A stretch of DNA of 64,000 nucleotides, from IMG/VR virus record IMGVR_UViG_3300032167_000048, one strand, 5' to 3'. Made by a program: the position numbers and the translations under genes. Below, piece by piece: positions 18,362 to 58,936 of this stretch (position 1 is its first letter; each line of letters starts with the position of its first letter). Below the pieces are notes generated by a model, which saw only the letters and a list, made by a program, of their open reading frames with translations, was not told the origin of the DNA and ran no database searches. Origin of the DNA: a virus (Duplodnaviria > Caudoviricetes).

Positions 18362-19586
18362 AACTACTCCTTTTCTGATAGCTCAGTTGCAACCTTTTCA
18401 ATTATCATATCTTTTAATTTTTGAGCTATTAATTTATCTGTTTCGTTTTCTAATACATTTTCACGTAACAACTGGACAATCAATAATGCTTCAACCGTGC
18501 TAATTTCTATGTTGTGTTTCATTATATAACCACCTTTAAAACTTTCATTTTATTATGCAAGCATTGAATCTTCTTTTGCACAACATCCATTTAGTAATTC
18601 ATTTTTGGCTAACATCGCATCTGTCATAGCCACGACACCATCTACAAACATACCGTAATCTTTTTCAGTAACTCCCCAATCAGTAGATTCTTTAATAACT
18701 TCATACATCGCTTCTAAAATCATACTTCTACTCATTCTTATCACCTCTTAAAAACGAAATTTTATTGCCTATAATCTCCACATGTATTCTCTAATAATAT
18801 CTTTTATTTCTTCATCGCTATATTCTCTGCCTAATAATTCTTCACTATCTAACTGATTAGTAAAATAATCATATATTAAAGCCATGAGGTCATTATGTTC
18901 TGCAATTTTTCTATATTTTAATTCTGGTGCTCCAACATATTCCAAACAATCATTAATAAAGAAATTATTTGATATTTTATATAACTTTTGGAATATAGAA
19001 CATCCACCAATTTTATCACAACTATAACAAAGCATTTTGTTACCTCTTAAAACTCTTATTTTATTCATCGTCATCTACTAATCTTCTAGTAGACGATATT
19101 ACTTGTTCTAATACTTGCTTTAATTCAATTACTTGTGTTCCACATTCTCTACATCTATGCCAATAGAATCTAACACCGTCAGTTCCTTTGGCAACTTGAA
19201 ATCTATTTTTAACCTTTTTACAATGTGGACAATAAAACTTCCAATTCATATATTATCACCTCTTAAAACTCAGATTTTATTATCTAATTTCAATTTCACC
19301 ATATTCTAAATCATTGTTTATAAAAATTTTATGTCCAGTATACTCGGCTATTCTACCATTTGGCTCGTGTTCGTCTTTGTATTTTGATGTTATACGCAAA
19401 AATAAGTTTAATGGAGATATGGTAAAATCAACGCTCTTTGCTGTATTTTCACTCATAAAAATATATGGATTAGATTTATTTGTAATATTTACATATTCAT
19501 CAATCTTTCTATTTAATTTATCTAAATCCATTTTTATAATAGAAAAAGTATCTCTCATATTATCACCTCTTAAAACAACAATTTTA

Positions 19587-19730
19587 TTAGTAATCAATTT
19601 CTTTTCCACAACGAGGACAATATTCAAAATCGTCCACATCAAAGTCACTCATTGCATTACTTGATACTACATAACCACAATGTTCGCATTCAAATCTTCT
19701 TCCTTTGTATTCTTCTGTATCTGTCACCAT
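19587..19730 (-). CDS. 47-aa zinc-ribbon protein (not in ORF track)
   Basis: MVTDTEEYKGRRFECEHCG...YCPRCGKEIDY; AAAGAGG RBS; stop abuts the junction site. Confidence 0.7.
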   Translation of the reverse strand: MVTDTEEYKGRRFECEHCGYVVSSNAMSDFDVDDFEYCPRCGKEIDY

Positions 19731-19745
19731 ATAAATTTTACCTCT

Positions 19746-20105
19746 TTATTTACCTTTATACGACTCTGGAAGTGGTTGCCACGCTACAACATTATGAGCT
19801 TCATAATATCCCCACTCTGAATCAAAATCATAAAAGCCTGCTCTATTTATATCACAAAAATCATATTCATCCACTTCGTAAAGATTTGTACTGAATGACA
19901 ACACTTCAAATAATTCGTGATTGCCAAAGTTGCTCTGACACAAATATTCTCCATCTTCTTTTGGCAGACCTTCGCTTGTTGGATTCCATTTATTCCAATC
20001 TTCATCCACCCAAACACCCTTTAACTCATGAATATATTCATATAAAATATCTGAAGGTAGACCTAATAATTCTAATACATCAGATTTTTTAATCCATTCT
20101 TCCAT
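19746..20105 (-). CDS. DUF551-like phage protein
   Basis: WNPTSEGLP...VVAWQPLPE motifs. Confidence 0.7.
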   Translation of the reverse strand: MEEWIKKSDVLELLGLPSDILYEYIHELKGVWVDEDWNKWNPTSEGLPKEDGEYLCQSNFGNHELFEVLSFSTNLYEVDEYDFCDINRAGFYDFDSEWGYYEAHNVVAWQPLPESYKGK

Positions 20106-20357
20106 AACTTACCTCATAAAACCTTTATTTTATCACCTTAAAATTCATAAGTTACTTTAACTTTTAAAATATGAAACTCTTCAGGTTCGTCATATGTGCT
20201 TAATTCATATTCACAACTTTCTTTACTCATCAACAAATCATGTTCCATAACATCAGTTTCATTTCCACAACGATAAAACTTTAGGGGAAATTCTTTTGAT
20301 GCGATGCAATATTTTTCTTCTGATATAATCATTTTAATACCTCTTAAAATCTTTGTT

Positions 20358-20864
20358 TTATAACTTTGTTTCATTATTAGCAGATGTAACATCCCAATAC
20401 TTAGTAGTTGATAAAGAATCTGATAATTCACTAATAGTATTACTAATCGTGTTGAAATTATTTGCACAATCTTGAATTGCTTTATCATAATGTTTTAATT
20501 TTTCTACATTCCATGATACATGTCTATTAGATGACGTATATCTATTATTGTCTGCAATATCTGTTATACTCATTGCTTTAATCTTACTATGTAATCCAAT
20601 GTTATATAACATCTGTTGTAACACAGATTCTGTATCGTCTACCAAAATACCATTGTCAAGACTTCTATTTCCTCTAATTTTATCTGAAAACACATCGCCA
20701 ACACATAATGGCTCTGGAATATTTAAATGTAATTCTTTTGCCATATGTAATAAAACATTTTTTTGCGCTAAGCTACTACACAAAATTGGTGCATCATTAA
20801 ATTCACTTGCATAAAGCAATCTTGTTGTTTTGCCTTGACCTCTACCTAAGTTAATAATCTTCAT
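20358..20864 (-). CDS. Small P-loop-containing protein
   Basis: GRGQGKTT at the N-terminus; ILVDD Walker-B-like motif. Confidence 0.6.
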   Translation of the reverse strand: MKIINLGRGQGKTTRLLYASEFNDAPILCSSLAQKNVLLHMAKELHLNIPEPLCVGDVFSDKIRGNRSLDNGILVDDTESVLQQMLYNIGLHSKIKAMSITDIADNNRYTSSNRHVSWNVEKLKHYDKAIQDCANNFNTISNTISELSDSLSTTKYWDVTSANNETKL

Positions 20865-23031
20865 AATTTACTCCTTATTGACCTAATAACTCTTTGCTTA
20901 GTTTTACAAAATTACTTCCAGAAGAATACAATCCATCATATCTATCATTTCTTTCTGCTTTTCTTAATTCATATTCAAGAGCTTCTGAATCTTCTTTCTT
21001 GCAACTTAACATCATTTGCCAAGTTAAACCATCTACATAATCATGCTGATGTTTATTTTTAACATGATTATATGGTGGGTGTATTTTTAATGATGGAGTT
21101 ACTAATTTAAAAATTTTTAATCTCATATCATATGAGACATAATCTATGTTTGCTAAATAATAATTTCTATTTCTATAATCCATATTAACCTCTTATTCTA
21201 CGCTCTTAATGACACAAACATTGTGAACAATAATTGTTTCGCCATAAATTGTTTCTATCCTTATCCAATTTGAAACCTGATTTGTTCTAAATTCAAAAGA
21301 TAATACATCACAAAATGTTTCTTCTTTTCCATTATATTTAATTGTTTTTAATTTCATCACTTAAAATCCTCGTTTTATAACTCTCTAACCTTAAACAAAT
21401 TATATGTCATAGTTTCTTCATATGCTTTTGCCATTTTGTCAAATGCTTCTTTATCTCTAAAAATAAATTTGTTCTCAAAATATATTACGTCAGTTCCTTC
21501 TGGCATAGTCGATTCATATTCGTAACCATACATTTTTTTATAAAACCAATTTATAATTTTATATTTGCTATATTTCTTTTGCTTCTTTATTTGTTGAGCA
21601 ATAATACATGGTATACCAAATAATAATTCATTCATTTTTTACCTCTTAAAACTAATCTTTTATAACCTTATTAAAATGTTCTCATTTCCATTTCTTCATC
21701 TGAAATACAATCACATTCTATCTGTGCATCAAAGTGTTCGCTTAAAAGACCAAGCCAATCATGTTCTGTAATGCTATGACCAGAAGCCCATTCAACACCA
21801 TTTACTTCAAGAATCTGCCAATCTCCAGATTCACAATTTGTTACTTTTACATGTTTCATATTATTCACCTCTATTAGAAATTTCTTCAACACAAACATAT
21901 GCATAATGTGTATACTCTTTATCATAAGCAACTGTAAATTCTGCATCTTCAAGTGCTTTTACAATTTTCTTTAAACTTTCTGTATCAGAAGCCTTTATCT
22001 CTGCAATCTTCATAATTTTTAACATATGCTTTACCTCTTAAAATGTTAGTTTTAACATGTGCAACGCCATTGCCAATGTCCGTCCCAGAACACTTTCTCA
22101 TAGTACTTGCACCCTTTACAACCAATTGTCTTTCTTTTTGATTTACTTACTTTTCTTTTACAAAAGAAAGCCATATCTTTTACCCCATAAAATTAAACTT
22201 TTATAATACTCTTATCCATGTGTTGTTGTGAAACACATAATCTTTATCCAAACATTCTTCTATACAAATGTCTCCGTTTTTAACCTTATCTGAATCAACA
22301 CAAGAAATATTTTCTGTGTGGATAATACCATCTTTATCTCTGTACCATCCACCACAATAACCATCATATTTCTTTTTTAATTCTCGATATTCTTTAACAA
22401 AAAGCTCTTTGAACCATAATTTATAAAATTCAAATGTATTTTTTGCATTAAGAAACTGCATATAATAATTTTCTCTATCTGTTTCATATGCAATCATTTC
22501 TTCTTTTGAATTAAATTCTATAAATTTCATATTACCTCTTAAAATTCAGCTTTTACGTTCCCATATTCCAATAGCAATATGATAATGCAACCACCATACA
22601 TCGATAACACTACAATTAATATATCTATAAATCCAAGGTTGCCATACAATTGTTGGAACAAATGAAAATATATAATTATCATTACCAACACAAAATTTAA
22701 TTGTCGGTTTAATTCTATATTCTTTTCTATTTTCTTTTAATCTAATTGAATCTTTAATTAACTTCATTTTTCTCAACCAATCTAAATGTAAATCTAGTAT
22801 TTTCAGTTTTTACGATAATCATATCATTCACATATTCCACACTCTGAATCACACTTGTATGAATTCTATGTGCAAGTTCTCTAAAACAACCATCTTCAAT
22901 CCAAAGAAACCAGCCGCGCTCCCCAACATTAAAATATGCTGGGTAAGCGATTCTGCCCAATACTCCTTCATAAATTGGATTATGGTCATTAAACTCTTCA
23001 ATTTCTTCAATAATATATTTTTTATTATACA

Positions 23032-25287: not shown

Positions 25288-25326
25288 AATATCACCCCTT
25301 AAAATCACCATTTTATTGCCTTTTAA

Positions 25327-25574: not shown

Positions 25575-26648
25575 TTAAAACCTCTTTTTTAAACTCTTCT
25601 CATATTTTTCATGTTGCGTTGTATCATAAACAATTCTGTTATCAAACAGATATTGGAAATCTTTATCACGCGCATCTGCTGGACTATCTTTAGCAGATAA
25701 GATATCCCATTTATCTTTAATGTAGCTTACTTTTCTGCCTCTCCAAAATTTTTCGCACATATGCCATACTTCTTCGTCTCTAATGTCTTTATCCATAGCT
25801 ATCACTATTTCTACATTTAAGCCCCAAAGAATATTTATCTGTTCGTCACTCAACGTGTGACCAGATAATGCCACGCCAGTTTCATCAAACAAACTATCTC
25901 TTTTTAAAACGCTTTTTTCTGCTTCATATACAACCACATAACCAGCCTTTTTAATTGATTCGCTGTTTTCATATAATCCGTATAAATTTAATAGCTTTGG
26001 ATATGTTGGTGTAATAAAATATTTTTTAATCCCAAATTCATTATAGTTTTCTACCGTAGTTCTCTGATTAAAACCAAGCAGCTCACCAGTAAGCCAATAT
26101 TTCATAGGAATAATTACACGTTTATATTTATAACTATAAGCCAGAGCAAATTTCTTTCTGGTCTTTTCTGTTATACCCTCTCTTAACCAGTCAATATGCA
26201 ACATTGGAATATAATCATTCATTAGTTTATCATCTAAAATATGAATATCATCAACATCTATTGTTCTTTTTTTACCACAAGCACGCTTAAATACTTCAAG
26301 AGGGTCGAATTTTTTCTTGGGCTTTTCCGCTCTTTTATATTCATATTTAATCCCAAGAATATTATGTATATATTTAATTGCCTCAATAATAGACATATTT
26401 TTATTATATTGGACTAGAGTTACAATGTCAGAACCTTCGCCAAACTCTTTTTCTCTAGTCCAATTTGTTACGCTCAAATACTCGTTATTTCTTACATTAA
26501 TAGCGCCTTTGTTATCGCCATTAAAATTACCACATGAATAAAATTCTTTTTTAGGATGATAAACTATACTGTGACAACCAATTTCCTCTAAGATATATTC
26601 TATTTTTTTATTTTTCCAAATATACTCTTTTAATTCACCAATTGTCAT
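25575..26648 (-). CDS. DNA primase (TOPRIM)
   Basis: LYGL; VYEAEKSV; AMDKD; KDSPAD; adjacent to the helicase. Confidence 0.85.
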   Translation of the reverse strand: MTIGELKEYIWKNKKIEYILEEIGCHSIVYHPKKEFYSCGNFNGDNKGAINVRNNEYLSVTNWTREKEFGEGSDIVTLVQYNKNMSIIEAIKYIHNILGIKYEYKRAEKPKKKFDPLEVFKRACGKKRTIDVDDIHILDDKLMNDYIPMLHIDWLREGITEKTRKKFALAYSYKYKRVIIPMKYWLTGELLGFNQRTTVENYNEFGIKKYFITPTYPKLLNLYGLYENSESIKKAGYVVVYEAEKSVLKRDSLFDETGVALSGHTLSDEQINILWGLNVEIVIAMDKDIRDEEVWHMCEKFWRGRKVSYIKDKWDILSAKDSPADARDKDFQYLFDNRIVYDTTQHEKYEKSLKKRF

Positions 26649-28886: not shown

Positions 28887-29975
28887 TTATTTACAAACAG
28901 CTAATACTTCTTTCGCTACATTTAAATCATCGATTTCATTTGGATTTCCAAATCCTTTTTCTTTATAAATCGCCATTGCTGGTTTAATGGCATCCATATT
29001 TGATTTATTTGCAACAAAGAATTCAACAATTTTAGCTTTAACTTCTTCTAATTCTTTTTCTGCCTTTGCTTTTGATTCAGCTTCTGCAAGACGTTTCATA
29101 TTTTCTACTTCTTCTTTTTCATTTTCTTTTTTGCGGTCTTCTACAGACTTTCCACCTTTTTTCACTTCGGCTTCTAAAGCATTCTTCATTGCTTCAATAA
29201 ATTCATCTGCATCAAAGTTAATTTCATTAGTAATCTGACTCATACGGCTTCCGCTATCTACTGTATAGTTGTCATCTCTAAACTTAATTTTTCTTGTTTC
29301 AGATTTTACATTAACAACTTCCTTACCATTAACTTTTCCTTTTACAAGTTCTCTATCAATGTATGCAATACCAACTAAGTCAATATTCTTTTTAAGCTGA
29401 TTGAAGTATCTCTGAGATACATCTGAAGTAATCTGCTGATATGATTCATTTGTAATTGGGTCTGTAATAGTTGTCTGACGGACATGACCGATTACACTAA
29501 ATGCAACTCCAACATTTCTCAGTCTAAAGAGCTGTTCCTGAAGAAGTTCCATAGCTTTGTCCTGACCTTTCATATAACCGCCCCAAGCAGCATTGATTGC
29601 AGTTGTTCTCTTAGCTGGATTTTCTTTGTTCCATAATCTAATAGATTCCTGCTCTGCAAGCTGAAGTGCATTATCAAGTGTATCTAAGAATACAACTTTT
29701 AAATCAGCATAGTCAGTTGTTCTATTATCAACAATATCATCAATGATTTCTACAAATGTTTCCCAATCTGGAACATCTTCATAAATGATATCTTCGATAT
29801 ATTTTGCACCATTTTCACGATACATTTCTAAAAAGATATAATTATCTCCTACTAATTTTTCTGCAACTTCTTTCATGATTGTTGTCTTACCAATCTTAGG
29901 AAGACCTAATAAACAGATGTTTGCATCAAGTGGATTAAGTGATACGTGATTTTTCTTACCAAATTTTCTTGCCAT
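28887..29975 (-). CDS. AAA_24 / Sak4-like ATPase
   Basis: GLPKIGKTT; VFLDT; VIGH. Confidence 0.85.
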   Translation of the reverse strand: MARKFGKKNHVSLNPLDANICLLGLPKIGKTTIMKEVAEKLVGDNYIFLEMYRENGAKYIEDIIYEDVPDWETFVEIIDDIVDNRTTDYADLKVVFLDTLDNALQLAEQESIRLWNKENPAKRTTAINAAWGGYMKGQDKAMELLQEQLFRLRNVGVAFSVIGHVRQTTITDPITNESYQQITSDVSQRYFNQLKKNIDLVGIAYIDRELVKGKVNGKEVVNVKSETRKIKFRDDNYTVDSGSRMSQITNEINFDADEFIEAMKNALEAEVKKGGKSVEDRKKENEKEEVENMKRLAEAESKAKAEKELEEVKAKIVEFFVANKSNMDAIKPAMAIYKEKGFGNPNEIDDLNVAKEVLAVCK

Positions 29976-35665: not shown

Positions 35666-36619
35666 TTAAAAGCTGTCTAAATGTCCTTTTACTAACTCTC
35701 TAAAGTTACTAACTTCTATATTACTGTTACATCTCATTAATTCTTTTGATATAATTAAATGCGCCATTTTATTTCTATTATTTTGAGAAAATGCTTCATT
35801 CAAAGAGATGTTGTTTTTATTTAACTCAATTTTAATTCTGTTCATTATACCACTAGCATATAATTGTAATGGCAATAAAGAGTATTCTAAATATTCTTTT
35901 GATATTTTACGAAGCTTTGAATAGAATGTAAATTTATAGCTTTCATCTGATGCTGTAGACCTATTTTCTACTTTGAACACACTATCTGGATAAACTCCAC
36001 GCATTTCTACATTGCATACAGAAAAACGATTTGGACGTTGCCATGTATTTATATCTGCAAGCTTCTTTAAATCTCCTGCCAATCTCTCTGGTATTTTAAT
36101 TTTATAACTATGACCATTATCTTCTCTTAATGTTATAGTCCCATTATCTTCTATATCTGATTTTCTCATATTTTTGATTACGCTTAAATCATCATTATAA
36201 ACACCATAATATAAACAACTGAATAATGATGTATAATATAAAGAATTATACTCTTCATACATTTCTATATCATGTATTGTTCTTTTATATTGCTCATATG
36301 ATATAAATTTCTTTTTTGCACTTGGCTTACATTTCTTCCATAAAAGATTTTTGTCAATACTTTGAACAATTTGATATGCATTATCATTATTAACTACACC
36401 TTTTTCTTGTAAATATTTAAAGTAAGATGATAAAATATAAACTATAGTAATGATTTCTTTACTACTATTTGGGTGCATATTTAATATCAAATTTTCCATT
36501 TGTAATGAATTATAATTCTCTATGTTGTTTTCATTGATTCTTTTGAATACATATTTAATTACTTTTTGAGTATTGTTTGATTCCATAGAATCAATAAACT
36601 CCTGCATATGCTTATTCAT
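35666..36619 (-). CDS. Tyrosine-recombinase-fold protein lacking catalytic residues, MrpR(YopR)-like repressor candidate
   Basis: 317 aa; LFSCLYYGV..DDL..IKNMRKSDI and LYASGI segments recall SPbeta MrpR-family proteins; no HxxR tetrad. Confidence 0.55.
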   Translation of the reverse strand: MNKHMQEFIDSMESNNTQKVIKYVFKRINENNIENYNSLQMENLILNMHPNSSKEIITIVYILSSYFKYLQEKGVVNNDNAYQIVQSIDKNLLWKKCKPSAKKKFISYEQYKRTIHDIEMYEEYNSLYYTSLFSCLYYGVYNDDLSVIKNMRKSDIEDNGTITLREDNGHSYKIKIPERLAGDLKKLADINTWQRPNRFSVCNVEMRGVYPDSVFKVENRSTASDESYKFTFYSKLRKISKEYLEYSLLPLQLYASGIMNRIKIELNKNNISLNEAFSQNNRNKMAHLIISKELMRCNSNIEVSNFRELVKGHLDSF

Positions 36620-41003: not shown

Positions 41004-41273
41004 TTAGTCTCCTGTAATTTCTCTTTTACAATCATACCATCCTCTATGATATGACAAGTAATCTACTGATTCTGGAACATAAGCATCTATTCCCATTGGA
41101 ACTTCTTTTAATGGACACCAATATGGTCTATCATGCATTAAATCATGTAATCCTAATTCATTATTTTCATATAAACAATTGCATACATCTTTATCCAAAA
41201 GATTTTTTGTTCTACATGGACACTCTATGCAACAGCTAGGCATTTCATTTAATACCAATATCGCTTTATTCAT
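41004..41273 (-). CDS. Cys-rich small phage protein, paralogue 1
   Basis: AILVL.EMP..C..CP...RP.WCPL.E.P. Confidence 0.75.
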   Translation of the reverse strand: MNKAILVLNEMPSCCIECPCRTKNLLDKDVCNCLYENNELGLHDLMHDRPYWCPLKEVPMGIDAYVPESVDYLSYHRGWYDCKREITGD

Positions 41274-41276
41274 AAT

Positions 41277-41534
41277 CTATTCTCCCAAAATCTCATTAAT
41301 ACAAGCATCCCAACCATCATCATATCCAGTAACATATCTATCATACTCTGGATAGTCTCTTACTGAATACTTTGGTAATTCTACTAATGGACACCAATCT
41401 GGTTTTCTATACATAGAATCAATGCGTTTGTTTTCTTTGTTACAAATTGGTTCTCCACGATTATTAAAATCAAACAATGGACAATTTCTACACATGTCTG
41501 GCATATATTTTAATACTAAAATTGCACTTGTCAT
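41277..41534 (-). CDS. Cys-rich small phage protein, paralogue 2
   Basis: AILVL..MP..C..CP...KP.WCPL.E.P. Confidence 0.75.
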   Translation of the reverse strand: MTSAILVLKYMPDMCRNCPLFDFNNRGEPICNKENKRIDSMYRKPDWCPLVELPKYSVRDYPEYDRYVTGYDDGWDACINEILGE

Positions 41535-41936
41535 ATCATCACCTACTCAATCACTTCTACTTCTTCAATACTATAAGAACTATCGCCATAAATATCATAA
41601 TAATAGTTAGCACATTTTTCATCATCACTTGACTCATAGTATTCACAACGTCTTTTTGCCTCCTCGATTGCACGTTTCTGACATTTATCATGTTCAGACA
41701 AACAATCAAGCTGACAATCTTGTGGACAATAATATAACGGACACTCATTGCATTTTATTTTTTCTGCTTGCTCTTTTTCAAGTCTCTCTTTTTCTGCAAT
41801 TGCCTTTTCTTCTGAAAGATAACTAGATACTATATAGTCATAATAATCTTCCCATTCGCCACCACGTTCATGTATCTGATATATTTTCATATAACCTTAT
41901 CTCCTATAACTTTACTATTTCTTTGTTTCTATACAT

Positions 41937-41965
41937 ATTATAACAAATAAGGTTATATTTGTCAA
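41937..41965 (-). promoter_or_regulatory. sigma-A promoter inside array B
   Basis: TTGACA-17-TATAAT just downstream (minus sense) of the 41992 site. Confidence 0.85.
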
Positions 41966-43041
41966 TAGCTTTTTTGCAAAATTTTTCCACTTAAAACTTC
42001 TCTTTTATGTGCTTAAAAAATTTCTCATATCCCATTCCTCGCCATCACAAGCCATTATAATCCATTTGTTTTTATAATCAATTGTTACTGGTATTCCCAT
42101 AAATTCAACAACACCATAATCAGTTGCTTCATAAATATGACAAGTTGAGTTATGAAGAATTTTTACGATTTCTGTTCCAAGGATAATTCTAGTTGGCTCG
42201 ATATTACGAGCACGCCAATCATAAATCTGGTTCATTAAATTAATAAAAATTTTTTCATAGTCTTTCATCACTTAAATCTCCATTTGTAAAATCAATTTTA
42301 TCTCTATCAAGTTCAATACATTCAATTACCTTTTTACAATTTGGACAAATATTTGGCTCAATAAAATACATTGGATATTCAATATCGCCTACTTTATGAT
42401 ACATCATACTGCAAACCACACCATCTTTAAATACATATCCACAATCACATACTGGCAACATTTTTAATCTAGTTGTATATTCATCTATACATTTAATTTC
42501 AACCATCACTTAAAATCCTTCTTTTATAACTTTAGCTCTTTACTTATAAACACGTCTTTTACCTTTTCCGTCTCAAACATTGCAACGTAAAAGATGCCAA
42601 TATTTATAATTGGAACAAAACAAGCAATAATCACTCTTGCCCATGCAAACATTCTTTCCAAAATATTTCTTTTATGATTCTTAAGATATTCTTCTACTGC
42701 ATCTGGATATTCTCTTTTAATTTCCTTATATAATACATAACTCTGCATTACAACAACTAGAAATGTTAAAATACAAAATGCTGCATAAATTTTTAAAAAT
42801 AACATAATCAATCACCACTTAAAACCTTTCTTTTAATTGTTTATTTAACTTATCTGCTTTACGTTTTGCCTGCTTTTCAAATAAATAACACCACTTTAAT
42901 CCTTCGATTCCATACCATTTAAAACAACATTCTAAATGTCCTTTTAAATCATATGGTAAAATTACATATGCAATTTCTGATACATTATTATCATAATTAA
43001 AATAACATTTCTTAACTTTCCATAACGTCATTGTTCGTACC

Positions 43042-43926
43042 TTATCTTTCATTTAAAATCTTCTGGAACATATCATCGATATTATCCATGATTGAATATC
43101 TGTCTGTTGCAAGAGAATTTCTTCCAAAGTTTCCATCCACTAAGTCTAAGTAGAAAGTAAATCCGCCATCATCTCCCATGTAAAACTCATTCCATTCTTC
43201 TTCGCTCATAAGTCTTTTAACTTCAAGCTGTTCGATTGCAAGATTGTCAAAACTAATTACTTTAAAATGATTAAGCATATCTTCAAGATTTTCTTTGAGC
43301 CAATACTGTAAAGAATCAATATTGTTATGCTCTGTTGTATAATGGGTAACACCACGTCTTAACAGTTTATACCCAAGAATAAGAATCTTCAAATCGTTAT
43401 CTGCAAGCATTCCAACATCTGACGGACTTAAAATTCCATTGATAACATGAATAACTGCATTTGGATATGTTTTAACAAGTTCAATAAATTTTTCAGTTGG
43501 ATTATTTAATGAAATTCCAAGACCATGAATCAATCCTTTATCTACTAGGTCACGAATCATGTCTTGATATCTTTCAAAGTGAATCTGATTTACTGTCATG
43601 TTTGCAATAACTTTCTTTTCTTTTAGTTTTTCAAGAAATGGAATTAAGTCTGGATGGCTCATATCGTTTCCATTAATAGCAAGTTCGGTATATGGATGTA
43701 ATGTATCCAAGAATTTATAGTTTAAAATGTCTCCATGTTTGCCATTAGGAGTACACCCCTCATAGCAAAATGGACAACCACCATCACATTTATCTGTAAT
43801 TTTGCAATCACAGTTTTCAGCAAAAGATGGAATAAATTCATCTTCATTTGTCTCTCTGATTTTTGTTCCGTCATCCATAATGATTACTCTATAATTTCCG
43901 TTTTTGTATACTCCTAATGTTTTCAT
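43042..43926 (-). CDS. Radical SAM protein
   Basis: CDGGCPFC (CxxxCxxC); ELAINGN; NMTVN. Confidence 0.9.
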   Translation of the reverse strand: MKTLGVYKNGNYRVIIMDDGTKIRETNEDEFIPSFAENCDCKITDKCDGGCPFCYEGCTPNGKHGDILNYKFLDTLHPYTELAINGNDMSHPDLIPFLEKLKEKKVIANMTVNQIHFERYQDMIRDLVDKGLIHGLGISLNNPTEKFIELVKTYPNAVIHVINGILSPSDVGMLADNDLKILILGYKLLRRGVTHYTTEHNNIDSLQYWLKENLEDMLNHFKVISFDNLAIEQLEVKRLMSEEEWNEFYMGDDGGFTFYLDLVDGNFGRNSLATDRYSIMDNIDDMFQKILNER

Positions 43927-43943
43927 TTAATTATCTCCTTTTA

Positions 43944-44252
43944 TTAACAATATCCATAATATCCAAATGCAACAATCTTTTCATTATTTGGTGTTTCGAA
44001 TGTCTGTTCAAATGTTTCATAATCCATATATTCCCAGTCATTAAACTGTTCATATGTTAAATATTCACAACCAATTTCATCTTCCATAGATTCTTTTACT
44101 TTGTTTGTAATAGGAACAAGTTCTTCACTCCATCTGCTCCAAACAAGTTCTCCATCCACCCACTTTTCAAAATCTGACTTTGTACACATTGTCAACGCAT
44201 GTGTACTACTACTATTAGTTTCAAACACTCCACATCTAACCTGTCTTTTCAT
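43944..44252 (-). CDS. FETNSSSTH-motif protein (short paralogue)
   Basis: MKRQVRCGVFETNSSSTHALTMC; AAGGAG RBS. Confidence 0.8.
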   Translation of the reverse strand: MKRQVRCGVFETNSSSTHALTMCTKSDFEKWVDGELVWSRWSEELVPITNKVKESMEDEIGCEYLTYEQFNDWEYMDYETFEQTFETPNNEKIVAFGYYGYC

Positions 44253-44265
44253 ACTGTTAATCTCC

Positions 44266-44835
44266 TTAATTCCATTTTTCATAAATTTCATAGTTATCAA
44301 ATTCTGGTTTTAGTCCACCATATTCAGTATATGTATAGGTGCTATTACCCCATTTCTCTGTTTTTTCACCCTCATTAACATACATTCTGTCTCTATAGCC
44401 GTCACCATTATCATTTCCAGTTACTACAAGACTATCTCCAAATAAATATCTAAGAAGTTTATCTTCGTCTTCAAGAACAGCACTTACAAAATCAATAGTG
44501 TCACCACCGTGGTCAATATAACCATCTCCCCATTCACTTTTATCTGGTTCAAAGCTACAAGTGATTCCATATTTACCCAATGTTTCTTCAATTTTGTATA
44601 ACATTTCTTTTTTCGCATCATCTCTGTCATAACAGCAATCACAAATCGCCTGATATAAATAAGATGCCTTAGAATGCAATCCGTGATATTCTGCTACTTC
44701 CCAACCAAATTCTCCATGTTCAAACTCTACATAGTTTGGAAGATTTGCTTTGTCCACATCTGATTTTGTGATACAAATTGCATGTGTGCTACTACTGTTT
44801 GTTTCAAATGTTCCTCTTCTAATCTGTCTTTTCAT
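44266..44835 (-). CDS. FETNSSSTH-motif protein (long paralogue)
   Basis: MKRQIRRGTFETNSSSTHAICI; GEFGWE, GYIDH and TGNDN motifs. Confidence 0.8.
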   Translation of the reverse strand: MKRQIRRGTFETNSSSTHAICITKSDVDKANLPNYVEFEHGEFGWEVAEYHGLHSKASYLYQAICDCCYDRDDAKKEMLYKIEETLGKYGITCSFEPDKSEWGDGYIDHGGDTIDFVSAVLEDEDKLLRYLFGDSLVVTGNDNGDGYRDRMYVNEGEKTEKWGNSTYTYTEYGGLKPEFDNYEIYEKWN

Positions 44836-45540
44836 ATTTATTTCCTTTCTTTGAATATTCTGATAATTTAATTTAAAAATTAATAATCTTCTGACAGTTC
44901 CTTTCCCATCATTTCACAGAATTCTAAAATCCATTCTTCAAGACCGTCAATTCTATCTTCTAAATATCTAGTCCCCACACTTTCGAAATCGAACCATCCC
45001 TCTTTTTTATCCCACGTTAGCTGTGCAATACTATAGCAATATTTGTCAGACATAACCTTTTTTCCAGTTGTTAAATCTGTCACCTCGGTAGGAATATCAC
45101 GATTAACCCATCTAACTAAGTCATATTTATATGGTTCAAAGTGTCCGTCTAAATAGCATGGTGCTCTAAACTGAAAGTTATTCCATATATCTGTGTATAC
45201 TCTAACCACCATATATTACCTCCTCTTTTTATTTACATATATTATAAAATATATTTATGAACTCCGTATGTACAAATTGTAAACAAATTGTAAACAAATA
45301 AAAGTCTTATTTTATTACCAATCCCAATCGTTTTTGTCTTCGCAATTAATTCCATTAACAATTGCATTACATTGTTCAATTAAATTTCTTGTATTGTCAT
45401 CATTATATCCCCAATCAGAATCATATCTTGTAATACCAATATGCCTCATGATGTTTTTCTGATTTTCCATAATCTGAGATAATGATTCAAATAATATTCT
45501 CTTTTCAAATAATTCGTTATTCATATACACCTCTTAAATT

Positions 45541-46200
45541 TTATAACCCCAATCCCTTTAATTCTGCTACAAGTTCTGCCAACTTAGGATTATCTGAATA
45601 TTTTTCTGCCATTGCTTCATAATATTCTACGGACTTTCTCTTGTTGATTTCTTTTTCTAATTCTTTTTCAATAGCCAATTTTTTCTTTTCAAGTTCTTTA
45701 ATTCTTTGTTCTTCTTCAACACGAGCAATGTATCCGTCCATATTTACCACTCCAACAACTTGTGCTGTAATAGCAATTTTTTCATTATACATTTCTACTG
45801 GCATAATTTCCTTTACAACAGCAAGAACACGATTATCTTTACTTCTTGCATTTACAACTACTAATTGATTTTCTCTTGTAATCAACTTTTCTTCTTCATC
45901 AAACAATGCAAATGCATAGTCCTTTTTATTATAATCTTCTAAAAAATTTACAATTGCTACATTCTTATAACCTTTCATATTATCATCCTCCATAATTCTT
46001 AATTCATCTTTTTTAAACCAAAATACACCATAACTACTTGCTTCATTTCTCAAACCGTCTAAAACAACACCAATATCTTCAGATGATATTCTTTCTACCG
46101 TACCAATCATATGTAATAATTTATGATATTTTTGTTTTGACGTGTGAATAATTTCTACTTTTTTATTTAAGTAATCATCATAATCTAATACTTCACCCAT
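45541..46200 (-). CDS. Hypothetical phage protein with C-terminal coiled coil
   Basis: 219-aa ORF with RBS. Confidence 0.7.
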   Translation of the reverse strand: MGEVLDYDDYLNKKVEIIHTSKQKYHKLLHMIGTVERISSEDIGVVLDGLRNEASSYGVFWFKKDELRIMEDDNMKGYKNVAIVNFLEDYNKKDYAFALFDEEEKLITRENQLVVVNARSKDNRVLAVVKEIMPVEMYNEKIAITAQVVGVVNMDGYIARVEEEQRIKELEKKKLAIEKELEKEINKRKSVEYYEAMAEKYSDNPKLAELVAELKGLGL

Positions 46201-46977
46201 AATTTCACCTCCACTTATCCACTTAAAAATACTGTTTTATCTGACCCATAATTTTTCTGCTGGAGCAATCCATTCAATCCATGCTTCTGGAATTACAACA
46301 AAAGCACCACTATGATATAATTCAAACCATACAACACCCCATGCTTCATGATGATATTTTCCACAAAAATCCTTTTTAATTGTTGTATGTGCCAATTGAT
46401 TTCTATAAATCTCTTTAATATTTACAATATAATAAATATCTCTATCTCTATTCATTTTACACTCCTTAAAAACATTCTTTTATGTGCTAGTTATCAATCT
46501 CCTCAAATAAGATACTATTAAACTGCACATTTGGAAACTCTTCTAATTCAACTATTGTATGCCATCCATGAACATCCACATCAACCAAAGTGTATTCTGT
46601 TCCAACAGTTAACAAATGCCCAGTTCCACTAAAACCCCAAGCACCAGCATCATCGTTATCAATACATATAATTTTTCTTGTTTCATTGTTAAAAATGTTC
46701 ATATTCTATACCTCTTAAAACTTTGATTTTATAACTCAACCTCTTTTATTTCTTCATCTGCATTGATTCCGTGATTTTCACATACTTTAACTAATTTTCT
46801 AATAATATCTAAATTTTCTTTTTCTTCAGCCAAAGTTTTTAAATGTCCATCAATCAAATCAATCGATTCTTGAAGATGCTTATTATCTCTATTTAATAAT
46901 TTAAAATAATGTTCTATATCATCAGTACCAAATAACCATCTTAAAATTAATTTTCTCATAAAATCCTCCTAATAAAA

Positions 46978-47490
46978 CTATTCTAAATCTACATTAAATT
47001 CATTTGTTACAGTTCCCTCTGGGCAATAAACAATATATCTATCATTGTACATTGGAAATCCCCAAATGTATGATTTTTTATTTTTAAAATCTCCGACATA
47101 CCTTTCAATATGGGTTTCCTTATCTGTATGTTTAATATAAGAATTACTAGCTTTTATCTTTTCTATACCATAACCAAATTCTGTTTCTGTAGCATAATAA
47201 TAATACAAGTCTTCGTCTACATAACCACCCATAATATAAAAATCTCCATTTACATTCTGATTATCTTTTAATGCTACAATTTTTTCATCTGAAATCATTT
47301 TATATTCAACTTCTGAACATTCACTTGTGATAATACTTGGAACAAGCAAAACTACAAAAACAACAAAGATAGTTGCTATCATCGACAATATTGAATATAA
47401 AATCTTCTCTAACCAACTATTACTCCAGTCTTTAACAATTCCTACTATTACTGCAATACATACAATTAATCCAATAATAATCCAAATCAT
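46978..47490 (-). CDS. Two-TM membrane protein
   Basis: MIWIIIGLIVCIAVIVGIV start after GGAGGT; second hydrophobic segment. Confidence 0.7.
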   Translation of the reverse strand: MIWIIIGLIVCIAVIVGIVKDWSNSWLEKILYSILSMIATIFVVFVVLLVPSIITSECSEVEYKMISDEKIVALKDNQNVNGDFYIMGGYVDEDLYYYYATETEFGYGIEKIKASNSYIKHTDKETHIERYVGDFKNKKSYIWGFPMYNDRYIVYCPEGTVTNEFNVDLE

Positions 47491-47516
47491 TTTTACCTCC
47501 CACTTAAAACTCTGCT

Positions 47517-47885
47517 TTATTGCCATTGTTTCTTCCATTCGTCATATTTTAATGACGCTTTACATTTCTTATTACAATAATCTTTCTTTCTACAAAACTC
47601 ACATTTGCCATTATGTAGCCATTGTTCTTTATAATCTACTAATTCAGTTTCTCCATCCCAATTCTCAAGTTGAACGTCAAATCCGTGTTCTTGTAATAAT
47701 ATTGTAGAATCTTTATAATTCAATCCATAAAATGTATGCGTACTTAAATATGGATGAAACCAGTTATCTTCCGTTTGCACCTTTGGAACAATGTGTCCAC
47801 AACCATTATCTAGTTCAATATCCAAATAATAATCTTTTGATTCTAATCCAACTAAGTCTTCCCATCTACTAATTAACTTCTTCAT
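47517..47885 (-). CDS. Hypothetical protein flanked by 19-bp direct repeats
   Basis: ccacttaaaactctgcttt on both sides. Confidence 0.75.
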   Translation of the reverse strand: MKKLISRWEDLVGLESKDYYLDIELDNGCGHIVPKVQTEDNWFHPYLSTHTFYGLNYKDSTILLQEHGFDVQLENWDGETELVDYKEQWLHNGKCEFCRKKDYCNKKCKASLKYDEWKKQWQ

Positions 47886-48430
47886 AATTTTCTACCACTT
47901 AAAACTCTGCTTTTGTGTGCTATAATCTAATAATTTTTCCGTTTGAGTTATGCAAACTTCCAATGCTTTTCGCACATAGTTCACTCTTCTTACAAGTTCT
48001 ATAATAGTCCCAACCATCTCTCTTATTCTCTTCTTTAATATCTTCATTCATTGGAACAATATATTTTTCCCAAACTTGCTGAATTGCATCTTTTGCGTCT
48101 TTCGCAAGAACAATCCACATATTATCGTACTGTCCATAATCACTTGTAACTAAATAATCTTTCATAATAATCTCCACTTAAAACTTTACTTTTATTGTAA
48201 TTTTTATTCTATAAAATCATTGAATAAAATAAATCTAATGTCTGTAAGTTTGTCAATTATTATATCAAATTCTTTTCTACAATCATCACACACTTCTATA
48301 GACATTGTGCTAAAATTTCCACCACTTAACTTTTCTTTTGGGATTTTTATTTGTATTGTTCTTTTCACTTCTTTACCACATCGGTCACAAAAATATTTTG
48401 TCATATTTTTCACCTCTTAAGATGTTTCTT

Positions 48431-48727
48431 TTATGCCCATTTAAAACTTCCACAAGTTGTTTTTGCTGGAATCCATGCTTTATCACTTGGAATTGGTTTC
48501 CAAACATCTTCTGGAAATTCCATATCACAACAATCACTATATCTACAACAACTACAACAGTTTATTTTATGTAACTCTACCCTTTTTTCTTTGCTAGTAT
48601 TTTCGTATTCTTGCATCATATAATCATATAAAAGTTCAGACATTCTTTGTTTGTCTTTTGATGCACATTCATACATCCTTTTATATTCTTTTAACTCATT
48701 AATTTCTTTTAATAATTCTTCTAACAT
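48431..48727 (-). CDS. Cys-rich hypothetical protein flanked by 20-bp near-identical direct repeats
   Basis: cttaa(g/a)atgtttcttttatg on both sides. Confidence 0.75.
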   Translation of the reverse strand: MLEELLKEINELKEYKRMYECASKDKQRMSELLYDYMMQEYENTSKEKRVELHKINCCSCCRYSDCCDMEFPEDVWKPIPSDKAWIPAKTTCGSFKWA

Positions 48728-49453
48728 ATTTTCACCCCTTAATCACTTAAAATGTTTCTTTTATGTTAATTTTCTTCCGCATACTGGACAATAACCAATT
48801 GGCATCAAGATTCCATTATAATAATGGTCACCACATGTTGCATACAGCCAAGGTTCATCTTTAAACATAATAATAGCATCTTCTTCGCTCCAAGGGTGTG
48901 AAAAATGTTTTTTATATTCTTCTTCGCTACTCCATATTGTTTTACAAAAATCACAACTCATATTCTTACCCCCTTAAAATCTGTCTTTTATAATGTTACT
49001 TCTAATCTCAATCTATCAATCTCAATATCTACTTCACATAATGTATCGCTTCCACAATAACATCCACCTTCATCACGATATTGAATACGAATATCATAAT
49101 CTTCGACATTGTTTTTAATAGCCCATTCATATAGCTCTTTAATCGTCATATTTTTACCTCGTAACAACTTAAAATCTTCCTTTTATTCCCATTCAGATGT
49201 TTCAACAATGATATTTACATCTAATCTAGCATTGCAAATATCCAATCCAGACAATCCACTTCTAATCACTTCTAATAAATCTTCATCATATTCACATAAA
49301 GATTCTACAATATTTCTTTCTGCTTCAAACAAAATTTTTCTTGCATTATACAATGTTAATGCTTCTTCGTCTGTTAGTTCGATGTTGTTTATTATTTTTT
49401 TAAATCCAAATTTCATATTTTCCACCTCTCAACCACTTAAAATTCACATTTTA

Positions 49454-50054: not shown

Positions 50055-51137
50055 TTATTCGTTTGTCAATACGTTTTCTGAATTTTCTTTAAAAAATTCT
50101 TCATAGCTTTCATTTAAAGCATTGTGTCTAGCAACGATAGAGCCATTTCTAGCCACTCCATTAGATGTAGCTTCCATATATCTAGCATACACATCTGAAT
50201 CGTTTTCTGTTTTGAAGAATGATGTTAAAAATTCTCCAAACATAGCTTCTGTAATATCATTATCAATAGACTGCTTTACGAATGGTACAAGTGAAACTAA
50301 ATGTGTTTCTGTATATAATTTTCTAGCAACGTCCTTTTCATGGTTGCTTGCTAATTCTTCATGTACATTTACAATATAGTTAAATACTTTGTTTAATTCA
50401 ACTTTATCATCTTCTGTTACTTCCATTGCTTCAATCTGTGGATTAAAGTCTTTACTTGCAAATGAAACATTATCTACATCATTGTTTAACATTGTTAATA
50501 CTTTTGTTACAATTACTGCATGATTCTTATTTGCTCTTGATTTTTCCGTCAGCATATCTTCAAATAACTTATGTGAGCCAATATCAAGTAATTCACCAAT
50601 GTTCTTAGCAGATGCAAGTGTTCTTGATTTAGTTGATAATGGTTTTCCATTATTTAATCTTCTGAACATTTCTGCTTTCTGAGTCTGGTCAAGATTGTCA
50701 TAATACTTAACTGTAATAGTTGCATCTTTAATTGCATCCTGTAATTCTTCTTCCAATTCAGAAAACTTCTTGCCAGAAATATCAATAGTACATTCATTTC
50801 CGTCTTCGTCTAAGTATGGAATAGGTTTTAATTTTGTTAATTCAAATTCATCTTTCATATACTTATAAATAGAAGTATTTCTCTGCTGACCATCCATTAC
50901 ATCATAAATTTTAACCTTATCACTATCACTTTCACCACGTTCTGCATATACTGGTGGAATAGGATATCCCATGATAATGCTCCAAATTAATTCACTCATT
51001 CTATGTTTTTCCCAAACAAAACTTCTCTGTACTACGTTCTTAAAACTAATTGTTTTCTTATCCATCATTTTTACAATCTGTTTGCATGTCCATGTAATGC
51101 TAGAACCTTCAATCTTTAAAATTTTGTCAATTGCCAT
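50055..51137 (-). CDS. DUF262 (ParB/Srx-superfamily, GmrS-like) protein
   Basis: QRSFVW; SIIMGYPIPP; DGQQR; FRRLNNGKPL. Confidence 0.88.
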   Translation of the reverse strand: MAIDKILKIEGSSITWTCKQIVKMMDKKTISFKNVVQRSFVWEKHRMSELIWSIIMGYPIPPVYAERGESDSDKVKIYDVMDGQQRNTSIYKYMKDEFELTKLKPIPYLDEDGNECTIDISGKKFSELEEELQDAIKDATITVKYYDNLDQTQKAEMFRRLNNGKPLSTKSRTLASAKNIGELLDIGSHKLFEDMLTEKSRANKNHAVIVTKVLTMLNNDVDNVSFASKDFNPQIEAMEVTEDDKVELNKVFNYIVNVHEELASNHEKDVARKLYTETHLVSLVPFVKQSIDNDITEAMFGEFLTSFFKTENDSDVYARYMEATSNGVARNGSIVARHNALNESYEEFFKENSENVLTNE

Positions 51138-51157: not shown

Positions 51158-51940
51158 TTAAATATAATCCAATCCTAATTCAATGCTTTTATACATATCT
51201 TTTTTCTTTTCATCCATAATAGCTATATATCGAAGTGTTGTAAGCGAATCAGAATGTCTTAAACATTCTTGTAACATTACTAATGCATCGCTTTTATCTT
51301 CTGCGTTATCATAGATATTTCTTGCCCATGTTTTACGAAGTGAATGTGAGCCTACATTCTTATCAATACCAGCTTCTTCTGATACATCAACAATAATTTT
51401 CCACAATCCAGCTTCTGTAATTGGCTTGCTTCCTTTTCTTGACTTAAACATATAATCGTTTAAATCTTCAATTGGGTATTTGCTTGTATAATTTTCAATA
51501 GCCTTTTTAACAGTCTGATTAAAAAATATCTTTACAAATTTACCAGTTCTTCTAGTCTTTTTAGGTTGTAGCACATAAGATTCTTTAAATGTCATATCAT
51601 TCTTGTAAAAATATGACCAACGTAATTGTATTAAATCACTTGCTCTTAGTCCAACATTTATTCCAATCAAGAACAACATTTTATTCCTATGTGCAATTTG
51701 TTTTTTGTTTTTACTTGTTGCGTTTTTGATACGATAATTTAGTACATCGATTATACTTCTTACTTCGTCTACATCAAATGGATAAACTGTTGAGCTTATA
51801 CCACTAACTCTGTTACAATGACGCTTATCAATTGTACCATCCTTATTATATCTAACCTTTGGTTTTTTAGCTAATTTCCCATTTACAATAGAAAGAGTTA
51901 TAACATTATCATTTTGTTGATACTTATTCATTGTTGCCAC
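51158..51940 (-). CDS. Tyrosine recombinase/integrase, catalytically intact
   Basis: GLRASD (R), KKT (K), HSLRKT (HxxR), LRHS (H), TTLRY (Y). Confidence 0.93.
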   Translation of the reverse strand: MATMNKYQQNDNVITLSIVNGKLAKKPKVRYNKDGTIDKRHCNRVSGISSTVYPFDVDEVRSIIDVLNYRIKNATSKNKKQIAHRNKMLFLIGINVGLRASDLIQLRWSYFYKNDMTFKESYVLQPKKTRRTGKFVKIFFNQTVKKAIENYTSKYPIEDLNDYMFKSRKGSKPITEAGLWKIIVDVSEEAGIDKNVGSHSLRKTWARNIYDNAEDKSDALVMLQECLRHSDSLTTLRYIAIMDEKKKDMYKSIELGLDYI

Positions 51941-54077: not shown

Positions 54078-54103
54078 ATTTATTCTCCTTATAACCTTAT
54101 ATA

Positions 54104-55170: not shown

Positions 55171-55198
55171 AAAAAGCACGGAGATTAATTCTCCGTGC
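55171..55198 (-). terminator. Intrinsic terminator
   Basis: gcacggaga-ttaat-tctccgtgc followed by a T-run on the minus strand. Confidence 0.8.
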
Positions 55199-55582: not shown

Positions 55583-56047
55583 CTAAACCATCTCCCTAGT
55601 TGTATACTGATTATACATTGTTTTATTTGCATATGAATACTCTAACGCATCATATAAATATCCTGCATCAATCCTATTGCTAATACAACCTTTGATAATT
55701 CCATCAAAATAACTATCTTCTGGTGGACAGATTCCTTTTCTATTGTCTGCCATTACATATACAATTGCTTTTTCTTTTGCTCCATCATCCATTAAAACAT
55801 TCACAAACTCTTTTACGTAATAGTTTGGATACCCTTCGTACATATCAAGTCTAGCCCAATCGTCATCATCAATATCCCATACAACAACTGGTACTTCGTC
55901 ATAGTCATCACCACTAATAATATCAGCATGACAATTAAATACTAATTTCCATCCTAACAACTTACCAGTTCCTATAACCTTAGATTTTGGACATCTAAAA
56001 GCCATTTGTTTTAAATTCATATTACTTCCATAAGCTACATATAACAT
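55583..56047 (-). CDS. Gamma-glutamylcyclotransferase (AIG2-like) family protein
   Basis: YVAYGSNMN..QM..RCP; LDMYEGYP..Y. Confidence 0.88.
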   Translation of the reverse strand: MLYVAYGSNMNLKQMAFRCPKSKVIGTGKLLGWKLVFNCHADIISGDDYDEVPVVVWDIDDDDWARLDMYEGYPNYYVKEFVNVLMDDGAKEKAIVYVMADNRKGICPPEDSYFDGIIKGCISNRIDAGYLYDALEYSYANKTMYNQYTTREMV

Positions 56048-56342
56048 AAATATCAACCTCCTTTATTATATTATATACTATATTTATTTATTTGTCAAGT
56101 AGTAATTCGCTATGTGGTATAATAAAGACCATAAATATGTTCTTTACTTCTTAAATATAAACATCCAGTTATCATATACAAGTTTTCATTATTTAAATCA
56201 TCTTTTTCAATTGATTTAATTCTTCCAACTTCGTATTCGTTTTTGTGATTCAGATAATAAACTTTATCCCCTACACAATATTCATCTTTAATCATCTTTT
56301 CTTTAAAATAGTACTCTTTGTTAAACTCAAACATAATGCCTC

Positions 56343-56528
56343 CTAAACAACCATATTATACTGTTTCATTAATCTCTCCATGATTAGTCTATTACATCTG
56401 CTAGGAACAATAGATAAATGTTCATTCTTGTCATTTCTATAAATCTCATGACTTCCTTTGCAATGATGTAACTTCCAACCATTCTTTTTAAGAATCCGTT
56501 TTACATCTCTCTTGCTATATTCACACAT
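56343..56528 (-). CDS. hicA: HicA-family toxin (no adjacent HicB)
   Basis: RILKKNGW.....KGSHEIY; 61 aa. Confidence 0.75.
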   Translation of the reverse strand: MCEYSKRDVKRILKKNGWKLHHCKGSHEIYRNDKNEHLSIVPSRCNRLIMERLMKQYNMVV

Positions 56529-57473
56529 ATAGTCACCTCCTTTATAACCTTATCTTTTATCTACTTATATTATACTACTATATATACTACTTGTCAAGTA
56601 TTATTTATACTTCAATTAGCTTTATTTTGCCTTTGTACTGTGGATATGTATTATAAATAGCTTTTGTTCCAAACTGAATTTCTTTTTTATTTGTAATACT
56701 ATTATAGAATGCATCAATAATTAATTTACTGTTGCCATGAACAAGTTTCTTACATTCTGCAAAAGTAGGCTTCTTATTCATTCCAACCCATTCATATCCA
56801 TGATTGAATAGTAATTCAACTACTTTATTGAATTTATCTTCTGTACTTGCATTATAAAATCCGTTCATAATAAACCTCCTTATACATCTTCTACTTCCAG
56901 TATTTCATACATACAATCTTTATTATCAAGACCATAAAACTTAATGCATTCTTCTACACTACTCACGATACAATGTTGCATTCTCCATTCCCAATTTGAC
57001 AACTTGTCTGCATATATAAATGTAATCTTCTTCATATAATTATCTCCTTATCTTTTATCTATTTATATTATACTACATTATATACTACTTGTCAAATACT
57101 TTTTTAAAAATCAATAGATTTTTTACTTCTAATAGTAGCAATGATAGATATTCATCACTTCTTTCTTCATTGCCTTTACAATTATAGTATTCATATCTGT
57201 CTTTATATGTTGCTATATTGTTTAATAAAATATCTTCCATTGCCATATCTACAACTCCTTATCTATTATCTGATGTTTCATTGTCTCCCCAAGTACACTC
57301 CTCTGGCAATGCTCCACCACATTTAAAATTATGTAAGCTACCTACTAAAGTAAGTTGCATACCCTCCCTATAGTTATCAAATCCAAGTTCTCTTGCTTTT
57401 TCTTCTGTCATTTTGCCGTCTCTTAACGCAATATAATCATCATATAATAATGCCATATATGTACACCTCTATT

Positions 57474-58936
57474 TAAAATCATTATTTTATTTGCCTAACA
57501 AACTACCACAACCATATTATTATTAGGTAACTGATAAACAAACTGTGTTTCTTTATCTCCCATAACATACTCTTTAAAAATTTCTTCACTTACAAAAATC
57601 TGTTCTGCAACTTCTGTATCGTATTCAAAGTATTCATTTTCTTTTTCATATTCAAAACATTCTGTAAAGTTATTTTCTCTATGCCAATGATTTTCCCATT
57701 CTCTGATATATTCATCCACATCATTCAAAGGCATTAATACTCTCCAATGATTGATTGGATTTTCCATTTTAAGATTATAAAATAAATTTGTAATATCTTT
57801 TGCTTCGCTTTCTGTAAATGCTAAAGCATCAGCAAACTGTTTTACTTCTTCTGTATTTAATCTCTTCATACTAATCTTCCCCTTTTAAAATCACTCTTTT
57901 ATGTGCTTATTCTTTGTTAAAAAATCCATGTTCTTCTAAAAATCCACTTTCATATACATCGTATATATAACTATAAAAACTATCAATATAATCTTCAATA
58001 TTATTTTCAATCAATTCTTCCCAAGTTTCTTTTGGACAATTCTTTTCATACATTCCAAACATATATGACTTCATACCATAATTATTCATACATAATACAA
58101 ATTCAATTAATTCTCCGTTTGGACTAACTTCTACATAAAAATCATCATTTACATCAAATCTTGTTGTTGTATATGTAGTTTTTTTCATATCTCCACCACC
58201 TAAAATCGTCATTTTATTTACTCAAAATATTTTGATAATTCATTTCTAACATCGGTATATGTGAAGCCAAGATTCCCAATTTTGCAATCCCCATCTTCAA
58301 GCCATTCATCAACCATATTAATTGCATTATCATCATATCCAAAGATTAACAAACCACATTCATCTGTAATATTTTTGATATAATCAAAGTTGTCAACGAT
58401 AGACCATCCCTCAATAAAATCTCCGTTTGCAGAATCTCCTCCAAGATTATCATTTTCTTTATGATAATTCTGTTCCCAAACTTTATACAATTCTTTGCCT
58501 TTTTCATTAAGTTTCATATCATTACCTCCATATAAAATTATCCTTTTAATTGTTGTATAATTCTTTTGCCAAACATTCAATTAGCATGAACATTACATTT
58601 CTTTCTTCCTCTGTTGTCATAGGCAACTCATACCAAACTTCATCATCTTTTTCTCCGTAATTACATACGGCTTGAATACTAACTTCCTTTTCCTTTGTAT
58701 TGAACATAAGATAAAAATTATAGTAAACATTGTTATCATAATCAACACCAACTAAATCTTCATTCCCTTGTTCTTTTCTAATGTTATTAGTTAATCTAAT
58801 TAATTCATCTGTTGCACATAAAACAATATTTCCCTCATATTCATCATTTGTAAAATCTAAAAAATCTCTATCAACAAAATCAATATATAATTTTTCATAT
58901 CTCATATCAAATCCTCCACTTAAAATTACATTTTTA
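57474..58936. repeat. Array C: 5 TAAAA-N6-TTTTA junction sites
   Basis: Starts at 57474, 57886, 58201, 58533, 58921. Confidence 0.9.

Follow-up and report, generated by a model that had tools for sequence, protein, structure and literature searches.

Palindromes and genes of the window

The palindrome TAAAA-N6-TTTTA recurs at gene junctions in the window considered here, a stretch of 64,000 nucleotides that forms part of a 110-kb record of a gut phage, IMGVR_UViG_3300032167_000048. The gene content, namely DNA polymerase III alpha, a RecD-like helicase, NAD ligase, NrdD, DnaB, members of the YorH and YopX families, and an MrpR-like protein, marks this virus as an SPbeta-like temperate phage; metagenome-assembled genomes that hold its full-length relatives are labelled Clostridia, Lachnospiraceae, and Bacilli.

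The window contains 43 perfect copies of the palindrome, compared with about two expected (Markov models of order 1, 4, and 5 give about two copies, at most six), in line with an earlier, sequence-only reading of this DNA, which estimated a few chance copies per 64 kb. As that reading anticipated, the enrichment is confined to the 6-bp spacer, each of the other spacer lengths within 0–15 being represented by 0–5 copies. Its counts, 42 perfect and three one-mismatch copies, agree with our rescan provided that the copy at 25576 and those with one mismatch are treated likewise. The copy at 25576, already regarded there as chance-like, is probably a chance match, its spacer being unmatched in relatives. 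The whole 110-kb record holds 54 copies, all with different spacers. The sites of the window are organized in three arrays and single copies (Table 1). Outside the window (G000, 99218–103157), three sites with differing centres lie within a longer repeated element, beside terminator-like hairpins.

Table 1. Sites, same-spacer pairs, and protein-coding genes discussed in the text (window coordinates).
Feature	Position	Strand	Remarks
Single site	6254..6269		At gene junction; no spacer match in relatives
Array 1	18537..22555		12 addressed sites (motif scan), between exonuclease and DNA polymerase III alpha genes
Single site	25300..25315		Downstream of primase gene; addressed by spacer match in relatives
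Probable chance match	25576..25591		Perfect match at primase stop; spacer absent from relatives examined
AAA_24 protein	28887..29975	-	Positioned as SPbeta yorG (Sak4-like annealase); candidate annealing protein
MrpR/YopR-like recombinase-fold repressor	35666..36619	-	Without HxxR; homologs of 70–75% identity carry PF22823/PF22822
Array 2	37797..49453		23 perfect sites and damaged ones, between GmrSD_N and MrpR-like genes
Twin sites, same spacer	47505..47915	-	Both arm-damaged; enclose 122-aa ORF 47517–47885
Recently exchanged single-gene module	47902..48192	-	Site 48179, 85-aa ORF 47920–48177, damaged site 47900
Twin sites, same spacer	48418..48763	-	48748 perfect, 48418 arm-damaged; enclose 98-aa ORF
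GmrSD_N protein	50055..51137	-	PF03235; at yopQ position
Short tyrosine recombinase	51158..51940	-	257 aa from ATG; PF00589; intact R-K-HxxR-H-Y
Array 3	57474..58936		5 addressed sites
aa, amino acids; ORF, open reading frame. Addressed sites are explained in the text.

The site exceeds 16 bp. Position 6 is A/T on both sides in 96–98% of cases, and beyond it a weaker, symmetric, lineage-specific outer arm extends to about 11 bp, where the conserved flank ends; the outer arm is significant in the upstream half as well, where no ribosome-binding site (RBS) plays in. Judged by sequence, the overall dyad, 11-6-11, is the architecture of dif sites, and its inner A4-N6-T4 core is the same as in difSL (PMC2965235). 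Within this clade, the outer arm on the downstream side coincides in part with the Shine–Dalgarno sequence, which accounts for the layout of stop codon, site, and RBS noted earlier: an RBS and a start codon follow within 40 nt of 39 out of 43 window sites. This location between stop codon and RBS would also suit an RNA hairpin involved in translational coupling or processing, but the folding energies are negligible (0 to -1.0 kcal/mol for five 18-nt sites, RNA parameters), and a loop needs neither exactly 6 nt nor an ordered, conserved sequence; we give this explanation next to no weight.

Spacer order in related phages

The spacers recur in related phages, designated here by their handles in the genome panel (G and L records), and they do so in the same order. 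The window phage and G005 have 18 spacers in common (2.3 expected), all of them collinear; collinear are also 17 out of 18 spacers shared with G023, 16 out of 17 with G043, and, for three complete relatives, 16 out of 17 (G049), 19 out of 19 (G054), and 12 out of 12 (G058). The shared core genes are 42–55% identical at four-fold degenerate sites. Per pair of genomes, exact matches of these addresses, as we call the 6-bp centres, number 12–35, vs. 0–9 with one mismatch, while drift predicts the reverse. The sequence-only reading described the spacers as almost always different, which holds within the record and does not hold between phages, where they are conserved and hence not free. In array 1, the spacers at 22540, 22188, 22039, 21647, 20345, and 20117 reappear in relatives with their order kept; those of array 3 recur in order in L082, L089, L121, G053, and G054, and that of the single site 25300 is found at the same place in G005, G023, G043, G049, and G054.

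The site with its centre persists while the genes on either side get replaced, since 564 out of 610 same-spacer site pairs across genomes have no flank homology (left-only in 24 pairs, right-only in 17, and on both sides in five). Homologous genes with at least 80% identity occupy the same slot in 20 out of 25 cases (8% by chance), the spacer order in this comparison being derived from the sequences, with rough cycle-breaking; changes of slot often are to a neighbouring one. Clonal copies of the window phage, when compared, revealed neither variation nor gene reordering, and a Pfam search of ten cassette ORFs yielded no significant matches.

These data bear on the possibility that a dimeric protein, e.g., the MrpR-like repressor, uses the palindromes as operators or in an architectural role, selection keeping them amid gene replacement. 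A dyad around a variable centre resembles an operator, an identical consensus has been predicted for RbkR in Thermofilum (PMC5397151), and the recombinase-fold repressor encoded at 35666–36619 flanks array 2. However, a centre that is not read should drift, yet the centres are conserved far better than synonymous sites, and the laboratory crossovers described below lie inside sites. Moreover, MrpR binds SPBRE (nine peaks) and SroF binds a long operator as a monomer, and these operators, as described in the literature, differ from the TAAAA-N6-TTTTA dyad. This possibility seems quite remote to us.

The sequence-only reading itself proposed Tn916- or integron-like cassettes with heterologous 6-bp coupling sequences, a shuffled gene order, and the recombinase encoded at 51158–51940 as the enzyme. 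A part of this proposal is supported: the sites look like crossover sites of the tyrosine-recombinase type, which bound exchangeable units, coincide with breakpoints, and are unrelated to attC. There is no IntI and no stable attC-like hairpin. It is also true that the recombinase is intact and lies next to array 2, that some genes change slot, and that twin sites enclose single genes. The arrays resemble integrons in that small unrelated ORFs, each with an RBS, are parted by recombination sites; but the order is fixed by addresses, not shuffled towards one attI, and unlike attC, which travels with its cassette, the phage spacer stays while both flanks change. The Tn916- and integron-like part is unsupported, because relatives have the same spacers in the same order, and the genes mostly keep their slot; the clonal copies without reordering argue in the same direction. 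The ends of Tn916 and Tn1549 likewise have A/T tracts around about 6 bp, but their tracts are oriented oppositely and enclose heterologous coupling sequences, whereas the centres of the phage sites match between partners. Overall, we consider shuffled cassettes very improbable.

Local blocks with the addresses of this clade occur in the site-poor L025, L027, L028, L005, and L030 (records G018, G020, G021, G004, and G022, respectively), with the address order mostly kept and one perfect twin in L027, which suggests from sequence comparison that whole array blocks may have moved between phage groups. The core genes are mosaic too: between window positions 14604 and 30000, identity to G005, G012, G023, and G043 varies by relative from 44 to 87% for DnaB and from 34 to 82% for DNA polymerase III alpha.

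Breakpoints and crossovers at the sites

Comparison of breakpoints with sites in related phages, the check suggested along with the original reading, shows that many of them coincide. The window module 47902–48192, 291 bp long, is 98.3% identical to L123 with unrelated flanks; the similarity extends from within site 48179 into the damaged site 47900. A module common to G005 and L120 ends 2 bp past a site. The same motif is abundant in SPbeta (34 sites) and in ten kin records (29–37 sites). In seven natural Bacillus Spbetaviruses, 36 out of 109 unique sharp homology breaks fall at a site, on the left as well as on the right of shared blocks, while sites occupy only about 14% of the ORF junctions. 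In one relative, an addressed slot is filled by a gene of the Tad4 (anti-defence) family (L120:5185–5532).

Crossovers have also been obtained in the laboratory. Dragos et al. tabulate 17 SPbeta–phi3Ts junctions (bioRxiv 10.1101/2020.05.06.055103, Suppl. Table 1, Dataset S4), only two of them with short homology, that is, junction 7 ("30 bp") and N1 ("non-homologous"). The coordinates of junction 7 lead to SPbeta site 69424, which has the same spacer as phi3Ts site 62423, and those of N1 lead to SPbeta site 116415, with the same spacer as phi3Ts site 107397. Both deposited junction sequences consist of the phi3Ts left flank, the site, and the SPbeta right flank, the stretch shared at the crossover being 21 bp for junction 7 and 18 bp for N1. 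These two junctions demonstrate crossing over within the sites in vivo.

Taking into account the enrichment, the ordered conserved centres, the natural breakpoints, and the laboratory crossovers, we consider it likely that the palindromes are sites of site-specific, spacer-matched exchange; that the chemistry is that of a tyrosine recombinase and that spacer identity is needed, we infer. Each palindrome would be a dif-like core site of about 11-6-11 bp with a constant inner 5 bp and a lineage-specific outer arm, which on the downstream side would double as the RBS. One tyrosine recombinase would bind both arms, and exchange would be possible only between partners whose 6-bp centres agree. Because the centres are unique per genome yet shared, in order, across the phage population, co-resident genomes, such as a prophage and a superinfecting phage, would recombine only in register. 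A single crossover would lead to an arm swap or a cointegrate, two crossovers would replace the module between two addresses, and the differing centres would suppress deletions within a genome.

Perfect twins, i.e., sites with the same spacer within one genome, are rare (one vs. 9.6 expected, P 0.002), while those in which an arm is damaged are more numerous than expected (16 vs. 7.2) and mostly enclose one gene, as do 48418 and 48748. Adjacent spacers in this clade are alike in the first two bases in 22% of cases vs. 8% by chance. New slots probably arise by insertion with duplication of the site, followed by mutation of one twin in the arm or the centre.

The same breakpoint patterns and 18–21 bp laboratory crossovers would be seen if the sites were short homology linkers for a phage annealing protein (the Sak4-like product of 28887–29975) acting without a tyrosine recombinase, possibly after cleavage by a nuclease that recognizes the interrupted palindrome. 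The Sak4-like gene is a core gene both here and in SPbeta, and breaks are found at other short repeats and RBS sequences as well. On the other hand, homology alone needs no two-fold symmetry, no strict 6-bp centre, and no arms common to all addresses, while the site anatomy agrees with Xer-type cores; annealing seems improbable, if less so than the operators and cassettes considered above.

Several points weigh against spacer-matched exchange. The genomes compared are kin rather than independent samples. Counted over six independent lineages, the depletion of perfect twins loses its significance (P 0.13), and the likeness of neighbouring spacers is weak or absent outside this clade. About 20–30% of homologous genes are found in a different slot. 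No perfect or one-mismatch site lies at 73 out of 109 Bacillus breaks, nor at 13 out of 18 recent block ends in the gut clade, and because many breaks fall elsewhere, exchange at sites is not the sole route. The probability that both short-homology junctions lie at a site is 0.003–0.02 over all isolated short matches and 0.10–0.16 over roughly collinear short matches, for two events. The other 15 junctions have at least 400 bp of homology and fit ordinary homologous recombination, several of the long homology tracts among them starting or stopping at a site; in four hybrid genomes (Hyb1-3, PP526179), the crossovers are in identical tracts of 1.4–18 kb and fit homologous recombination too.

Candidate enzymes and comparison with known systems

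The recombinase encoded at 51158–51940 has catalytic residues invariant in 38 homologs and scores under the XerC/D/S and IntI cut-offs (21 bits vs. a cut-off of 265 for the IntI profile TIGR02249); its AlphaFold model is poor (predicted local distance difference test, pLDDT, 55) and was not used. No site adjoins its gene. According to gene order, it is at the position of SPbeta yopP and phi3T sroD, and the SPbeta genes yopP-yopQ-yopR are transcribed in the lysogen, a further argument against cassette shuffling by this protein. The adjacent GmrSD_N protein is likewise matched to yopQ by gene order only, because pairwise similarity to YopQ is not significant; in direct comparison of three window proteins with YopP, YopQ, and YopR no significant similarity was found, that of the 35666–36619 protein with SPbeta YopR being weak. 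The assignment of the 51158–51940 recombinase as the enzyme is not supported by its distribution: this family has no match in the near-complete, site-rich G013 (60 sites), G016 (30), and G019 (24), and is present in the site-poor G024–G026.

A YomM-like recombinase, in contrast, is present in all complete members of the clade, and the family, found in G013, G016, G017, G025, G003, and Bacillus phages, is present in the majority of site-rich phages; often a site follows the stop codon of the YomM-like gene by 1–50 bp. The recombinase and site co-occurrence is only indicative, because the TAAAA-N6-TTTTA motif itself served to pick part of the genome panel, and it is imperfect: G033 has a YomM-like gene with one site, and G019, with 24 sites, lacks a close YomM-like member. 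The yomM region falls outside the 110-kb record, and no YomM-like protein of the window phage itself was seen among the best 120 matches of the homolog search. No alternative palindrome was found in site-poor phages that have a YomM-like or window-type recombinase. YopP (L193:18691–19767) and YomM (L207:301–1335) have HxxK instead of HxxR, which the phi3Ts counterpart of YopP keeps. In sum, the YomM-like recombinase fits better than the 51158–51940 recombinase, and we put it forward tentatively, at a little short of an even chance of being the enzyme; action of a host enzyme is unlikely, action of some other enzyme equally so, and the recombinase of the window is a still more doubtful candidate.

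Among other genes of the window, an ArdC-like anti-restriction gene (54104–54970) lies between array 3 and the 51158–51940 recombinase. A tRNA cluster includes a match to RAGATH-27 RNA (3171–3256, minus strand) directly after a 218-aa ORF (3297–3953). According to ARAGORN, 4028–4097 (minus strand) is a tRNA gene with a UUA anticodon, ochre suppressor-like, which may be a slipped tRNA-Lys.

The proposed spacer-matched exchange has its closest parallels among Xer systems. In the pdif/dif modules of Acinetobacter Rep_3 plasmids, many 11-6-11 sites recognized by host XerC/XerD bound accessory modules and recombine only where their 6-bp spacers are the same or nearly so, and two crossovers via a cointegrate replace single modules (PMC13141974, PMC11705084, PMC6449649). 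The phage sites are similar in their two arms of about 11 bp around a 6-bp centre (a strict inner 5 bp, a weaker symmetric consensus to position 11) and in exchange between identical-spacer sites, as seen in natural modules and laboratory junctions. Unlike pdif sites with distinct XerC and XerD arms, they have identical inverted arms, a different core, and no C/D alternation; they reside in a large temperate phage, 30–60 per genome in one fixed order, with no inversions seen and with an outer arm that overlaps the RBS. One enzyme acts on both arms in the single-recombinase systems XerS/difSL and XerH/difH, which have single chromosomal dimer-resolution sites, xerS adjoining its own (PMC2965235, PMC5357621). 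Besides the inner core, the phages share with XerS/difSL the adjacency of many yomM-like genes to a site, but their recombinases score far below the XerS cut-off and each genome contains 30–60 sites. Like the sites described here, the PeSL cassettes of T4-type phages are repeated intergenic elements at which accessory genes are acquired, lost, or exchanged among relatives (PMC2839356). PeSLs consist of promoter and terminator repeats, whereas the present sites are short dyads with unique centres, no stable hairpin, and flanks conserved only to about 11 bp.

A literature search, thin on subscription papers, found no description of the TAAAA-N6-TTTTA motif in phages, and a system of addressed crossovers apparently is undescribed so far; its class would be spacer-matched Xer-like module exchange. 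As a whole, the proposal that SPbeta-like phages of Bacillus, Clostridia, and gut Lachnospiraceae have a dedicated, phage-encoded YomM-like exchange acting on dozens of population-wide 6-bp addresses is a tentative one, which we rate somewhat below an even chance. If it is true, the genome of such a phage consists of modules swappable in register, with a built-in cause of mosaicism at gene boundaries. The origin of this mosaicism in phages is an old question, the usual answer being illegitimate or homologous recombination followed by selection, whereas a large group of phages, including the model phage SPbeta, appears to carry ordered crossover addresses, which opens the question to direct tests with SPbeta and phi3T in B. 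subtilis. Such phages might also supply a recombinase whose many orthogonal 6-bp addresses could serve to assemble DNA in a set order, and addressed crossovers would account for the fast turnover of accessory genes in SPbeta-like phages.

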